From contig OZ241981.1 in the NCBI GenBank assembly GCA_965204345.1, positions 1,920,001 through 1,984,000 on the forward strand: a stretch of DNA of 64,000 nt, read 5' to 3'. The notes below the pieces were generated by a model, which did not search any database, had not been told where the DNA came from, and was given only the letters and a program-made list of their open reading frames with translations. Source of the stretch: Nitrosopumilus sp. Its GTDB lineage: Archaea > Thermoproteota > Nitrososphaeria > Nitrososphaerales > Nitrosopumilaceae. Made by a program: the position numbers and the translations under genes. Positions 41,371-45,773 of this stretch are shown here, one piece after another. Each line of letters begins with the position of its first letter. The first letter of the stretch is position 1.

Positions 41371-42015
41371 ATGACTGAAAAATCACGATTGAAAATTCAT
41401 CCAAAAATGATTACTGGACTGCAAGGAATCATTGTAGGTGGCGTCTCCATGCAGGATTTTTGTGCTGTCACCAAAATAAATCCTCAAGATTCCAAGATTA
41501 TTTTAGAAGAATTTATCAGAAACGATATTGGAACAAAAAAAGACGATTTCTATTACTTTGAGGACGGAGATAAACTAAAGATTGCCGTTCTTTTACTTGA
41601 AAACGGACTTGCTTTGGACGAAATTTCAGTTGCCCTTGGTTGGAGGGATTTTGAAGGCCTGACTGCTGAAATCTTGCTTTCAAAAAATTTTGCTGTAATC
41701 AAAAACATGATGCTAACCAAACCCCGTATGGAAATTGATGTCGTTGGTATTAGGCTGGGCATTGCCATGCTGATAGACTGCAAGCATTGGAAACGCTATG
41801 GTGCTTCTGCACTAAATACTGCAGTACAAAAACAAATCAAGCGTACTAAACGGTATGTTGAAAAAACCCCTGGGGCCATTGCAGTACCTGTCATTGTTAC
41901 GCTGTATCAGGATAAAATCAATTTCATAGAAAACGTTCCTATTGTGCCTATTTTTCAATTTTCTTCATTTGTGGATGAATTTTATGGCAATATTGATCAA
42001 ATGAACACTATATGA
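41371..42015 (+). CDS. Restriction endonuclease-like (Mrr-cat, PD-(D/E)XK) protein
   Basis: WRDFEGL..EIDVVG..LIDCKHW. Confidence 0.75.
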   Translation: MTEKSRLKIHPKMITGLQGIIVGGVSMQDFCAVTKINPQDSKIILEEFIRNDIGTKKDDFYYFEDGDKLKIAVLLLENGLALDEISVALGWRDFEGLTAEILLSKNFAVIKNMMLTKPRMEIDVVGIRLGIAMLIDCKHWKRYGASALNTAVQKQIKRTKRYVEKTPGAIAVPVIVTLYQDKINFIENVPIVPIFQFSSFVDEFYGNIDQMNTI

Positions 42016-43756
42016 AAAGACTGGTTATGAATAATAAAACGCCCCCAATGACAAATCCCTTGGTGATCTTTAGCGAATTATCCAGTGCTTTAGAATAGTC
42101 TTTGTAGATGTTTTGACCCATGACTTTGACCTTTGTTTCATTTTCTAAAATCTCAAATTTCGCAGGCGCCGTATTGACTTCGGCTGTTTTTGCAATTTTG
42201 AAGAACCATTTTGAGAGCTTATCTGCGCTTGTAATTAGCCCTAATTGATAGTACCCATTTCTGTTTCTTGCTTTAACCGGAGCATAATGCGTGTCTGATG
42301 TACATATCTCAAGCAGATTGTAATCCCTCTTTGCAAAAATATCTATGATTTTTTCTCTTACTCCATTTTCCATATTGTTTGCATCTGCCCATCCTAGAAA
42401 ATATTTTTTGCTATTAATTTTTAGACACGTGATTCCCAATCCTCCCATTCCCAAATCCTCTGCCCAAACATCCATGTCGTCTGTATTTGCATATCCAAAT
42501 TCTATTGGAAAATTATTTTTTGTAATCAATGTATCCAGACATGATTTTGCAGCCTTTAGCATATCTTCCCCGTCTTCCTTTGATATTTCCTCCCCCATTG
42601 CATTGTGACAGTCAACTGCCAGTATTCTTGTATAGTTTCTGTTCTTAGAATACTGTTCAATCTCTGTCTTCATATAAGTTGGAATATCCTCCATTCCGTG
42701 TGGCGACAGTGATAAAAACAGCAATGGGTTGTTCCCAAAACGAATCCCCGTGACTCTTGCTTTGTTTATTTGAACCGTAACCGGCTCTGAGCACTGCATT
42801 CCTTCCTCCTTGACTGTACTGTTTTCCATATTTTTCAAGTAATTTTCAACTTCATTTCTTGATGGAAGGTTTAGCGCATGGTCTGAAATGCTATGCATTA
42901 CCATTGCAGATGATGACAGGTTTTTGTAAATTAGGTATGGTATGTTGCTGCCCCCTACCGGGTGGTATGGACCTGGATGTATCTCTGGCAGCACCATTCT
43001 GAATTCTTTGTCTCCTGCATGATCTGAGAATTTTATTTGAGACGTAGTAACTTTGGTTTCTGAGGATTGCTTTTCCATCAGCTCTTCGGCATCTGCAAAA
43101 TCGTTTCCCTGTGATGCAAGATATGCTTGAATGGTCTTGTGAGTACTTTCCATCTCCGGCCTGCCTGCCCTGTCTGTCATTATTGACCATATGTTTGCAA
43201 TTATCAAAAATACAATGCCGTATGCTAATCCTACTGGTTCATTTAGTATTTCAAACCATATGCTTTGTGGGATTAACACTGCAAACATTGCCAACGGCTG
43301 AATAAATGCAATTGCCCAAGCTTTTTTGAGGCTAATCCCCAATGTTGTTGTGTATATTCCAATTCTAAAACTTGCAAAAAGCATCATTCCAAAAACTATG
43401 AAAAATAGTTGTACCTCCTTGGATAAAACCAGACTTGCAAGCAGTCCCATCAGAATTGTTACTACCCATAGCATGCTACCAAAAAATGACGAATGCAGTG
43501 ATTTTGAATATTCCTTCTTCTTTGTAAATTTTGTATCCAATACCTGTGTTAGTGCCAAAACCCCTAGGACTATTGGTAATCTGTACCATACTTCATCTGT
43601 ATATGTTTCTCCAAGATATCCAAAATATGTTGCAAGTGTAATTACTGCTCCTACTCCTAGTGAGGCTGCTAATGAAAAATAATGTGACCCTGGGTTGATC
43701 AGCGTAAGTGAAAATCTATTGTGTATGTTTGAAACATCGTCTGGATCTTTTTCCAT
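42008..43756 (-). CDS. DUF2070 family membrane protein
   Basis: N-terminal TMs; IHPGPY..GGS, VDCHN, ADANN, CTSDTH; adjacent to Sec61beta. Confidence 0.85.
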   Translation of the reverse strand: MEKDPDDVSNIHNRFSLTLINPGSHYFSLAASLGVGAVITLATYFGYLGETYTDEVWYRLPIVLGVLALTQVLDTKFTKKKEYSKSLHSSFFGSMLWVVTILMGLLASLVLSKEVQLFFIVFGMMLFASFRIGIYTTTLGISLKKAWAIAFIQPLAMFAVLIPQSIWFEILNEPVGLAYGIVFLIIANIWSIMTDRAGRPEMESTHKTIQAYLASQGNDFADAEELMEKQSSETKVTTSQIKFSDHAGDKEFRMVLPEIHPGPYHPVGGSNIPYLIYKNLSSSAMVMHSISDHALNLPSRNEVENYLKNMENSTVKEEGMQCSEPVTVQINKARVTGIRFGNNPLLFLSLSPHGMEDIPTYMKTEIEQYSKNRNYTRILAVDCHNAMGEEISKEDGEDMLKAAKSCLDTLITKNNFPIEFGYANTDDMDVWAEDLGMGGLGITCLKINSKKYFLGWADANNMENGVREKIIDIFAKRDYNLLEICTSDTHYAPVKARNRNGYYQLGLITSADKLSKWFFKIAKTAEVNTAPAKFEILENETKVKVMGQNIYKDYSKALDNSLKITKGFVIGGVLLFITSLFI

Positions 43757-43928: not shown

Positions 43929-44134
43929 TACAATTCGTCGTTGCGGATTTTAACATAAAAACTTTATTCTGTGTCCAAAATATGACCCTAAACCCAGATT
44001 TTATCAGAATCGTGGTGGGATTCAGGTGATCACAAGTCAGTCTATGACAGGAACTGACAACTCAAATTTTTCCCTTACTGAGCATCTGGCCCAATTCTGT
44101 TTATTCTGATATTTGAACCGATTCGGTAGATGGG

Positions 44135-44148
44135 GTGTGTGTGTGTGT
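44135..44148. repeat. (GT)7 microsatellite
   Basis: gtgtgtgtgtgtgt. Confidence 0.85.
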
Positions 44149-44196
44149 AGATACAGTCCTTCAAAGATAATACTGATATGCGAGACGATCTGTGGG

Positions 44197-44355
44197 CGGT
44201 TCTGGTAAATTTTGGCGCTTCATGCCACAAATCACAGATTTGGAAAGTCTGAACTGCACTGGGATTTTTTGATGACTAGATAGTTTAAGAAAATCATCTC
44301 TTGGCAATTTACTGTTAAATTTCAGTGAACAGATCATCAGAATTTATCAGAACCG
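44197..44355 (+). mobile_element. Family A element, full-length (159 bp), MITE-like
   Basis: Terminal inverted repeats CGGTTCTGGTAAATTTTG ... CAGAATTTATCAGAACCG; non-coding; multi-copy. Confidence 0.8.
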
Positions 44356-44492
44356 AACCACGTATGCGTATGTCAGTGATCCGACTGTGACAAAAAGCAT
44401 GTCTGTGCCAGTCACTGCAGCCCTTTTGACAAATTGTTGTTTTGACATGGACTCGTGCGAGTTTCGGAAAATTATTCCTCATCAGCGTGCCT

Positions 44493-44780
44493 TTCTAGTT
44501 GAGTTATATTGGTAGAATGATGTGATGTAGTGAGGGCTAAGGGTATACTGTCATCATATTGATGTTCAGAATGAGTGGATCTTACATGGCCCTCACTATC
44601 CAGTATCTGGCTGTCTTGAAAAATTGCGCATGGTCTGAGTTTCAGGAATCAACCCTGTATTCCCAGATGCCTTCTAGTTGAGTTATATTGGTAGAATGAT
44701 GTGATGTAGTGAGGGCTAAGGGTATACTGTCATCATATTGATGTTCAGATCAACGCCGACTCATCATGCCCTCACTATCC
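44493..44780. ncRNA. Two tandem hairpin-RNA-like units with identical scaffold and a variable 18-nt insert
   Basis: 78 bp identical (44493-44570 = 44672-44749) + 18 variable nt + 13 bp identical (GCCCTCACTATCC) that pairs with TAGTGAGGGC; TTATAT box within the repeat. Confidence 0.6.
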
Positions 44781-45208
44781 TATATTCTAATTCCGAATCT
44801 CTTGGAAGGTGCAAAGTATTGGATTTTGAAAAAGGCTGTTGCAGAAAATGGTTTTGGGTTTTGGAGATTTGATTTTCAAAGACTTGGTTTTGTTTTTTTG
44901 ATTTTGTTTTTTGGTTTTTGAAGATTTAATTTTTGGAAATTGCACAATTTTGATGTCATGTAATTACGCGATAGTTGAAATGGATGTCGTGTGATTGTGT
45001 GATATTTTGGATGATTTTTGTGTAAATTGCCTGCTTTGTGTTTGGAACTAAAGTTAGGGATTTTTCCTTATCTGTGCTAAAAGTTGTGTTTTTTGGGTTT
45101 GTTTAATATCTGATACAACTTTTGTACCAAGGGCGTTTTGTTAACCCCCTTTTTGCAGTGGTTTTTTGATACCATTAGACTGCGATAGTTGCAATGGATA
45201 TCGCGTAA

Positions 45209-45363
45209 TGGTTCAGGCAAATTCTGATGAACTGATCACTGGAATTTAACAGTAAATCGCATAGATGATTTTCTTAAACTATCCAGTCATCAAAAAATCC
45301 CAAAAAAGTGCGGTTCAGAGATTGCACTGATTTACGGCACAGGCCACCAATTTACCATAGCCA
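45209..45363 (-). mobile_element. Family A element, full-length, inverted
   Basis: TGGTTCAGGCAAATTCTGATG ... GATGATTTTCTTAAACTATC..GTCATCAAAAAATCCCA ... AATTTACCATAGCCA. Confidence 0.8.
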
Positions 45364-45443: not shown

Positions 45444-45773
45444 TTATTGTTTGTCTTGAATTTTACCCATTGTTTCTAGTATGGCGTTGATGGTTTTTAG
45501 AATTTCTTGTTGTCTGTCATGATTAGTCTCATGTTCTAATTCTTTTGACAAGCTCTCTATCTTTTTTTCCAGGCTCTCTTTTATGGGATTTTTACTCTCA
45601 CTTGTCGATTCTTTGGGAATATCTTTTTTCTCAGGTGTCCGTCCACAACTGATGCACAATGCCTGGCCCTTGCTTATGACCCTGACTCCCTTGCAGTATG
45701 GGCATGGTTCACTGAGTAATGTTGCCCCCTTTAGCAGCATATCTGCTGCTTTCTTTGTCAGATCCTCTGCCAT
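45444..45773 (-). CDS. UPF0148/autoantigen p27 (SSSCA1-like) zinc-ribbon protein
   Basis: MLLKGATLLSEPCPYC...CISC with a coiled-coil C-terminus. Confidence 0.85.
   Translation of the reverse strand: MAEDLTKKAADMLLKGATLLSEPCPYCKGVRVISKGQALCISCGRTPEKKDIPKESTSESKNPIKESLEKKIESLSKELEHETNHDRQQEILKTINAILETMGKIQDKQ

Follow-up and report, generated by a model that had tools for sequence, protein, structure and literature searches.

What is encoded by a tandem repeat in which a perfectly kept scaffold carries a short stretch that differs completely between its two copies? The question is raised by positions 44493-44780 of a 64,000-nucleotide stretch of a Nitrosopumilus sp. genome (contig OZ241981.1, positions 1,920,001 to 1,984,000 of the forward strand; hereafter the window, meaning this whole stretch), where an initial annotation made from the letters alone had proposed a programmable RNA cassette with swapped inserts. 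We interpret both units as minus-strand genes for archaeal box C/D small RNAs (sRNAs) or as decaying derivatives of such genes, a reading to which we assign a probability of roughly 80%. It replaces an apparently new cassette in the window with a recognisable, partly decayed box C/D sRNA pair, and it points to a family of C/D sRNAs in ammonia-oxidising archaea that is accessory, mobile and arrayed.

The repeat geometry described earlier was confirmed on the sequence. Two 78-nucleotide (nt) blocks are 100% identical and start 179 nt apart; the 18 nt that follow them differ (ATGAGTGGATCTTACATG at 44571-44588 and TCAACGCCGACTCATCAT at 44750-44767), and directly after this variable part both units continue with 13 identical nt, GCCCTCACTATCC. 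In each unit TAGTGAGGGC and GCCCTCACTA are perfect 10-nt inverted repeats, forming a 10-base-pair (bp) closing stem with 51 nt between its arms, and both units hold an inner CATCA/TGATG stem and a TTATAT box (44504-44509 and 44683-44688).

44493-44570, no strand assigned: left 78-nt identical block, with its partner at 44672-44749

In archaeal box C/D sRNAs, a terminal stem joins box C (RUGAUGA) and box D (CUGA) into a kink-turn (K-turn), the internal boxes D' and C' form a second motif, and L7Ae, Nop5 and fibrillarin assemble on both the C/D and the C'/D' motifs. Guides of about 12 nt pair with the target, where a 2'-O-methyl group is added to the nucleotide that faces guide position five, counted upstream from D' or D. 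Read on the minus strand, the two window units (unit 1 and unit 2, or u1 and u2) follow the order stem, box C, D' guide, box D', loop, box C', D guide, box D, stem, as listed here with their scores in a covariance model, R1, that was built from five units (alignment A2).

44707-44777, minus strand: unit 2, candidate box C/D sRNA gene, R1 score 89.2 bits
44768-44777, minus strand: unit 2 5' stem
44761-44767, minus strand: unit 2 box C, AUGAUGA
44749-44760, minus strand: unit 2 D' guide, GUCGGCGUUGAU
44745-44748, minus strand: unit 2 box D', CUGA
44737-44744, minus strand: unit 2 loop
44730-44736, minus strand: unit 2 box C', AUGAUGA
44721-44729, minus strand: unit 2 D guide, CAGUAUACC
44717-44720, minus strand: unit 2 degenerate box D, CUUA
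44707-44716, minus strand: unit 2 3' stem
44528-44598, minus strand: unit 1, candidate decayed box C/D sRNA gene, R1 score 81.9 bits, aligned with units u4 and L040a (see below)
44589-44598, minus strand: unit 1 5' stem
44581-44587, minus strand: unit 1 broken box C, AUGUAAG
44570-44580, minus strand: unit 1 D' guide, AUCCACUCAUU, of the decayed ..CCAUUCAUU class
44566-44569, minus strand: unit 1 box D'
44551-44557, minus strand: unit 1 box C'
44542-44550, minus strand: unit 1 D guide
44538-44541, minus strand: unit 1 CUUA in place of box D
44528-44537, minus strand: unit 1 3' stem

The 18-nt insert is therefore box C plus the D' guide, and the 78-nt block comprises, in C/D orientation, box D', box C', the D guide, CUUA, the 3' stem and a 35-nt trailer with an AATATAA box. 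This bears out the earlier suggestion of C/D boxes on the minus strand in a fixed scaffold with a variable guide, and the spacing given then for unit 2 (ATGATGA, 12 nt, CTGA, 8 nt, ATGATGA, 9 nt, CTTA) is correct.

Only two units had been counted so far; a further tandem pair, u3 and u4, lies at C1:262788-263092 and is better preserved, with about 77-85% identity to the window pair. Both are fully canonical, reading stem, one extra base, AUGAUGA, 13 nt, CUGA (GUGA in u4), 7-8 nt, AUGAUGA, 10-11 nt, CUGA and stem, and the single base between stem and box C is what K-turn geometry asks for, giving the expected 3-nt bulge. A strict four-box pattern has two matches in the 2.1-Mb genome, u3 and u4 only, and none in the reversed genome, so that the four-box layout goes beyond chance. 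Against this template, box C is AUGAUGA in u2, u3 and u4 and AUGUAAG in u1, which thereby fails at this box. Box D is CUGA in u3, u4 and nearly all relatives versus CUUA in u1 and u2, and because of this replacement we file the window copies as degenerate members or derivatives. The internal D' and C' boxes with their short loop are present throughout (CUGA, 8 nt, AUGAUGA in u1, u2 and u3; GUGA, 7 nt, AUGAUGA in u4). The D' spacer of 11 nt in u1, 12 nt in u2 and 13 nt in u3 and u4 fits a guide of about 12 nt, the D spacer is short, at 9 nt in the window units and 10-11 nt in u3 and u4, against 10-12 nt in most relatives, and the terminal helix abutting the boxes measures 10 bp in u1 and u2.

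The initial annotation had expected further copies with other fixed-length guides elsewhere, and R1 found them: within the genus it matches 15 of 149 other genomes, or 16 of 150 with this one counted, as well as four of 149 other genomes in a separate family-level sample, these lying in two other genera. A BLAST search with the 109-nt unit against 200 genomes of the family had returned nothing outside this genome; since the covariance model did find relatives, we regard BLAST as too insensitive here. Pattern searches contributed little: a scan of genome contigs gave 32 stretches, where only L040, from a metagenome-assembled genome titled Nitrosopumilus sp., is relevant and the rest are bacterial chance matches, and a generic half-C/D pattern run over 400 genomes was set aside, swamped by coding ATGATG repeats; a match that it gave in the unpublished genome G260 supports no claim made here. 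Viral contigs had no match with the first pattern and two with a wider one, neither of them matched by R1; the one in L116 lies inside an open reading frame (ORF) and was rejected. Separately, an element of the form ATGATGA-ACCATACYAATT-TGAG-TCAT-ATGATGA recurs across species of g22 (G085, G115, G137, G166, G198, G204, G216) and may be a core C/D sRNA of that genus. Our literature search found, going by titles and abstracts, no paper on an accessory, mobile, arrayed C/D sRNA family, and it found none joining Nitrosopumilus with box sRNAs.

Conservation within the family follows the anatomy. Across the 53 units listed, the stem core GAGGGC/GCCCUC is kept, as are the four boxes and their spacing; both guides vary, and the outer four stem pairs covary (GU/AC, UA/UA, AU/AU, AA/UU, UU/AA). 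In an alignment that still included two opposite-strand rows, 93.5% of stem cells are paired, against 29-61% in slid controls, and 45 cells are changed on both sides, a count expected at 17.5 +/- 2.8 from shuffles and reached in 0 of 500 of them. The guides can be kept too: in G291 and G375 the units have 24 of 24 guide bases in common within insertion sequence (IS) copies that are 69.7% identical over 1262 nt, a comparison that argues for function.

The sequence is present in RNA libraries, and the proteins for an sRNA of this type are encoded in the genome, where the fibrillarin and Nop5 genes are adjacent and L7Ae is present. The RNA evidence consists of contigs of four libraries from one study, which give neither strand nor level.

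44544-44767: RNA contigs X11
44544-44750: RNA contigs X15, with adapter read-through at 44544
44548-44756: RNA contigs X14
44581-44806: RNA contigs X12, with one inserted base behind 44767

Together they link unit 2 across the spacer to most of unit 1, and position 44767 is the first base of the unit 2 box C. Adapter sequence is reached in one contig at 44544, a sign that many fragments end at this position. There is no cover at 43985-44292, 44447-44523, 44909-45216 and other places, gaps that are uninformative alone.

Where might the guides be directed? The guide of unit 2 pairs with 16S positions 904-912 through eight Watson-Crick pairs and one G-U, so the 8-nt 16S match reported for it earlier (own small-subunit (SSU) rRNA 905-912, TCAACGCC) is real, though not above chance for the unit alone; the guide of unit 1 has 9 of 12 matches with two mismatches and is likewise not above chance by itself. 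For the four units of this genome, no guide beats shuffled guides against the genome's own 16S, 23S and 40 tRNAs, and among seven G000 guides searched for perfect or one-mismatch genome targets, those of 13-14 nt find only themselves and shorter ones find chance numbers. For the family we used 44 distinct guides from strict-pattern units, a set without u1, u2 and other degenerate units. Contiguous pairing anchored at guide position 5 reaches p <= 0.05 in five of the 44, against 2.2 expected, and several guides fall on the same few sites (own numbering; LSU, large-subunit rRNA).

LSU 2068-2078: AUGAAUGGAAC, paired by guides over 11, 9 and 9 bp
SSU 905-917: UCAACGCC / CGCCAGA / GCCAGAAA, three guide classes
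SSU 1345-1354: CGUCGUUUCA, guides of 10 and 7 bp
SSU 1423-1432: AAGUCGUAAC, three guides
tRNA-Ala(UGC): guides of 10 and 9 bp

We take the rRNA sites to be the helix 70/71 region of 23S and, in 16S, the helix 31 loop region and both decoding-site strands. The class of unit 2 (..GGCGUUGAU/..GGCGTTGAT) pairs with 16S UCAACGCC and would predict methylation at own SSU A908, and intact relatives of the other class present in the window (..CCAUUCAUU/..CCATTCATT) pair with 11 nt of 23S AUGAAUGGAAC. That independent D' classes converge on a few functional sites of rRNA is, to us, more telling than the score tests. According to a passage of Dennis et al. 2015 (PMC4644070), helices 68, 69 and 71 are methylation hotspots, and the sites listed there as predicted include E. 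coli A1408 and G1494. The initial annotation had named ordinary C/D sRNAs, with both guides on rRNA methylation sites, as the reading that would displace a new cassette: the convergence of the family's D' guides on rRNA sites speaks for it, while the window units alone stay at chance.

Several observations weigh against a box C/D sRNA pair. In Rfam the best match, sR49 (C/D box), reaches 24.2 bits against a gathering score of 50 and no family reaches its threshold, so that no described Rfam family covers the units. CUUA stands for box D in both window units and box C is lost in unit 1, which makes a canonical terminal K-turn doubtful for both, and the D guide of the window units is just 9 nt long. 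Their guides score at chance against own rRNA and tRNA, shuffles reaching the best score in 84-177 of 200 trials, and in the family test a score fraction of at least 0.85 is attained by 10 of 44 guides and by 23 of 176 shuffles, no clear enrichment, with most D guides finding no convincing target. In alignment A4 (stem columns 5-9 with 160-164), A-C cells outnumber G-U cells by 18 to 5 on the modelled strand, although RNA pairing there predicts the opposite; these cells lie mostly in outer pairs and in related, non-independent rows, and their excess may reflect register uncertainty at the stem ends. Lastly, judging by the adapter, read 1 at 44544 is a minus-strand read, and with the commonest stranded protocols this would indicate an RNA from the plus strand.

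The last two points are also what a quite different product would lead one to see, namely a structured RNA of the plus strand, with the TTATAT box some 20 nt ahead of the stem as its promoter and with the C/D boxes incidental or belonging to an antisense partner. The TTATAT box is kept with each array unit at a roughly fixed distance, and the plus-strand folds are as stable as the minus-strand ones (-25.5 and -28.6 kcal/mol, z about -2.6 to -2.7). However, the four boxes in C/D order, their spacing and the K-turn geometry across diverged copies have no plus-strand explanation, the guides are antisense to rRNA in the minus-strand reading only, and the single units described below are co-oriented with, and upstream of, a transposase gene in C/D orientation. 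The TTATAT box itself lies about 25 nt upstream of the minus-strand ATG of a downstream gene. We consider a plus-strand product unlikely.

44504-44510 (second copy 44683-44689), minus strand: AATATAA box (TTATAT on the plus strand), about 25 nt before an ATG at 44482
44315-44482, minus strand: frameshifted, truncated remnant of an SNase-like gene, 17 of 32 residues identical to residues 15-46 of the G353 protein

A CAATATAACTC box follows the units in G000, G353 and G422, and in G353 it precedes the start of a 237-residue transmembrane/SNase-like ORF. We therefore infer that the AATATAA box is likely the TATA box of the downstream minus-strand gene, duplicated with each unit. The TTATAT box noticed earlier is indeed present in each repeat, and it reads better as the probable minus-strand promoter of the gene remnant than as a promoter driving the unit from the plus strand.

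If the units are box C/D sRNA genes, how did two copies come to have one scaffold and two inserts? The segment holding the gene remnant, both units and GGTTTTGG repeats has a paralogue at the second locus.

44359-44973, no strand assigned: segment paralogous to C1:262652-263263, 79% identity over 636 aligned positions

The insert of u2 matches that of u3, where the 13 identical bases (the conserved stem) are also present, and two 1-nt gaps suffice to align the insert of u1 with box C and guide in u4 and L040a (..CCAUUCAU..). The guide class of u2 (..GGCGUUGAU, ..GGCGTTGAT) recurs in u3, G274, G353, G359 and G422, and the u1 insert is a decayed copy of a second class (..CCAUUCAUU, ..CCATTCATT) seen in u4, L040a, G385, G274 and G371. 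Because both classes recur in other species, the inserts are old guide classes that predate the species, and the earlier picture of swapped modules is given up. A micro-inversion as source of the difference was rejected as well, since the complementarity of the two inserts is confined to 6 nt (ACTCAT/ATGAGT). The identity of the scaffolds, whose positional paralogues in u3 and u4 are only 76-85% identical to the 78-nt block, is best read as a single recent gene-conversion tract ending at the guide, and such a conversion would have followed the change from CUGA to CUUA, because both copies share CUUA. Relative to the flanks, the two loci carry the guide classes in opposite order (read in the C/D direction, a-b in the window and b-a at the 262-kb locus, as in G274), which needs an extra step of unequal exchange beyond one conversion tract.

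The family occurs in two kinds of mobile surroundings. In the first, nine single units (L074:1501-2750, L078, L084, L091, L094, L098, L100, L085 and L082) stand immediately upstream of a gene of the same orientation that encodes a protein of 374-377 amino acids; this gene is intact at three loci, shortened or frameshifted at four and absent at two. All three of the proteins scanned for domains have a DDE_Tnp_IS240 domain, one of them also with a weak SWIM zinc-finger match, and for both of the two compared with NCBIfam the best model is an IS6-family transposase, which scores 110-120 bits where the cut-off is 125. Homology between the IS copies starts at the unit and runs to a right end with an IS6-type terminus, ..ACAGAACC; a 29-nt perfect terminal inverted repeat encloses the unit in L085 only (at 589 and 2954), and the left ends of the other copies were not found within 1.5 kb. 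An extended inverted repeat (GAATCAAAG.../...CTTTGATTC) was also seen to enclose each single unit. The IS6-type transposase copies of this genome come without the unit.

At seven of the nine single loci, a frame in which box C reads ATG ATG runs open across the unit, and its stop overlaps the transposase start (mutated in L100). This favours a short upstream open reading frame (uORF; ..RAMM-x4-SD..MM-x4-SEPS..) that regulates the downstream gene, the C/D resemblance being secondary; yet in array units (u2, u3 and the units of G353 among them) the frame is broken by stops or shifted by guides of 13 nt, no such ORF exists in the window units, and what varies coincides exactly with the guide positions, several of them antisense to rRNA, so that we give a peptide-based explanation hardly any credence.

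In the second kind of surroundings the units form tandem arrays.

G353: 4 units, period 234 nt
G369: 4 units, period 234 nt
G274 (two arrays): 6 and 7 units, period about 129-146 nt
G422: 13 units, period about 214-450 nt
G080 (another genus): about 10 or more units, period about 141-466 nt

The array islands were seen at L102:9271-10445 and in L127, L128, L105, L125, L106 and L073. The arrays lie upstream of a membrane-anchored SNase-like gene and of repeated genes of unknown function, and divergent from a gene for an actin-like (MreB/ALP) ATPase followed by a small protein, with an ArdC-like gene and further transposases nearby; the ATPase gene is present in 8 of 13 sequences searched, and the whole looks like an integrated plasmid-like element. 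Genes repeated in tandem in these islands include that of a 305-residue protein, in up to five copies in L127, and that of a 167-residue membrane protein.

Type II partition centromeres sit at just such a position, directly upstream of and divergent from an actin-like gene, so the repeats might act as DNA, either as a centromere-like (parC) or other protein-binding repeat for the ATPase and small-protein pair or as transposase-binding sites. The units occur also singly, in IS contexts without the ATPase; their covariation keeps the stem and not the sequence, conserved boxes combined with variable guides do not suit a protein-binding iteron, and three GGTTTTGGAGATTTGATTTT iterons near the window units would be better centromere candidates. 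A role as DNA sites is thus very improbable. The GGTTTTGGAGATTTGATTTT-like iterons lie at 44857-44933 with a spacing of 28-29 nt, and there is a palindromic motif, ATTACGCGATA/TATCGCGTAAT, at 44963-44973 and 45199-45209; G274, G177 and G359 have similar TCGCGTAATTA palindromes on the upstream side of their units. These iterons and palindromes may be operator or centromere sites of a lost ATPase module.

The window pair itself sits in a 1.7-kb gap amid ordinary core genes, framed as follows.

42008-43756, minus strand: DUF2070 gene, one border of the gap
45444-45773, minus strand: gene for a small zinc-ribbon protein, the other border
44198-44354, plus strand: repeat resembling a miniature inverted-repeat transposable element (MITE), 157 nt, with IS6-type ends GGTTCTG / GGTTCTGGTAAATT...CAGAACC, dozens of copies in the genome; left bracket
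45210-45363, minus strand: the same MITE, inverted; right bracket

The two inverted MITEs bracket the fragment with the units much as in a composite transposon, and just left of the first lies a short (GT)n run, GGGGTGTGTGTGTGTGTGTAG, at 44131-44151. This genome has no actin-like ATPase gene of the kind found beside the arrays. At the 262-kb locus just 41 N-terminal residues of the SNase-like gene are kept, and in the window only a frameshifted 33-residue piece survives; the remnant there reads MRNNFPKL in one frame and MSKQQFVKRAA..SLTYAYVV (44350-44448) in another. Because the ATPase is absent, the SNase-like gene is truncated or frameshifted and the window fragment is MITE-bracketed, both loci of this genome are therefore remnants. 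In the sequence of events that we propose for the window, conversion would have made the scaffolds identical after box D had become CUUA, unit 1 would additionally have lost box C, the flanking nuclease-like gene would have been broken, and two MITEs would have come to bracket the fragment.

In the family as a whole, the units are accessory and patchy in distribution, placed upstream of IS6-type transposase genes and in arrays near an actin-like ATPase gene. A more far-reaching version, which we offer tentatively and think rather unlikely, has them as mobile cargo: exchangeable C/D guide cassettes, single in the leader of an IS6-type transposase gene or in arrays of up to 13 in an actin-like-ATPase island, which would recruit the host's L7Ae, Nop5 and fibrillarin to methylate the 16S h31 loop, both decoding-site strands, 23S helix 70/71 and a tRNA-Ala, the window pair being a decaying remnant. 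An element with such cargo could retune or protect host translation, and in the IS copies, where the ATG ATG of box C also begins the uORF that overlaps the transposase start, assembly of the ribonucleoprotein on box C could throttle transposase synthesis. If the guides do direct methylation of the decoding centre and neighbouring sites, mobile DNA would here specify a modification of the ribosome, and natural strains with and without the guides would allow single 2'-O-methyl groups to be tested in a mesophilic archaeon.

Arrays of stem-enclosed units with two guides each, up to 13 in G422, in association with mobile DNA and transposase genes, also bring known programmable systems to mind, in which a Nop-domain protein or a transposase partner would be led to DNA for defence or for targeted IS6-type transposition. 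The paper on TIGR systems, in the part relevant here, describes stem-loop arrays with box C/D-like motifs on mobile DNA, made of 36-nt units with repeats of 8-12 nt, spacers of about 9 nt, UG/CCA motifs and no K-turns, beside an adjacent Tas gene (PMC12045711). Our units resemble TIGR-Tas arrays in being tandem, in their two short guides with box C/D-like flanks and, as in some of those, in being enclosed by a stem. They are unlike them in measuring about 75 nt with a period of 129-260 nt instead of 36 nt, and in having full K-turn C/D boxes where tigRNA has short UG/CCA motifs. This genome and five array-bearing relatives (G000, G274, G353, G369, G422 and G385) have one Nop-domain match each, far from the units; with a single Nop-domain protein in each checked genome there is no Tas partner, and the idea of a Nop-domain gene beside the scaffold falls. 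The longer guides of this genome have no perfect non-self target in it, and guides compared with their own IS locus do not exceed shuffles in 15 of 16 tests. On the opposite strand at L091:156, where no tRNA was called, there is an 11-nt perfect complement (the ATGGCACGCGGC region) to the D' guide GCCGCGTGCAAT, 1.3 kb from the unit, with 0 of 100 shuffles as good. A DNA-directed system of either kind is, in our judgement, highly unlikely, and what stands of the programmable cassette is its fixed scaffold, its variable guides and its many copies, the layout itself being that of a canonical box C/D sRNA with K-turn geometry.

The single units recall the bridge RNAs of IS110/IS1111 in that a structured non-coding RNA with variable loops lies 5' of a transposase gene. 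They differ in that the enzyme is a DDE protein of IS6/IS240 type with a (weakly matched) SWIM zinc finger and not a DEDD/Nop-domain recombinase, in that the guides do not match the element flanks in the tests just given, and in that IS6-type copies of this genome do without the unit. We know of no RNA guide for an IS6-type transposase.

Clustered C/D s(no)RNA genes of plants and yeast offer another comparison, as they too are guide units placed head to tail, and the RNA contigs here bridge two units. Unlike those clusters, the arrays have up to 13 near-identical scaffolds, a regular period of 129-260 nt and a promoter-like box in each repeat. A passage of PMC12045711, citing Tripp et al. 2017, notes clustered snoRNA arrays in archaea.

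Compared with archaeal box C/D sRNAs, finally, the family is unusual in its long covarying stem of 8-10 bp, its accessory distribution across the genus and its mobile and array contexts, and also in its host, which appears to be a mesophile; thermophilic archaea have far more 2'-O-methylations than mesophilic ones, as stated in a part of PMC7994747. It is like them in the sequence of its four boxes (C, D', C', D), in a D' guide of about 12 nt, in guides that may be antisense to conserved rRNA and tRNA sites, in a terminal stem that abuts the boxes with a 3-nt bulge, and in a host genome that encodes the protein machinery.

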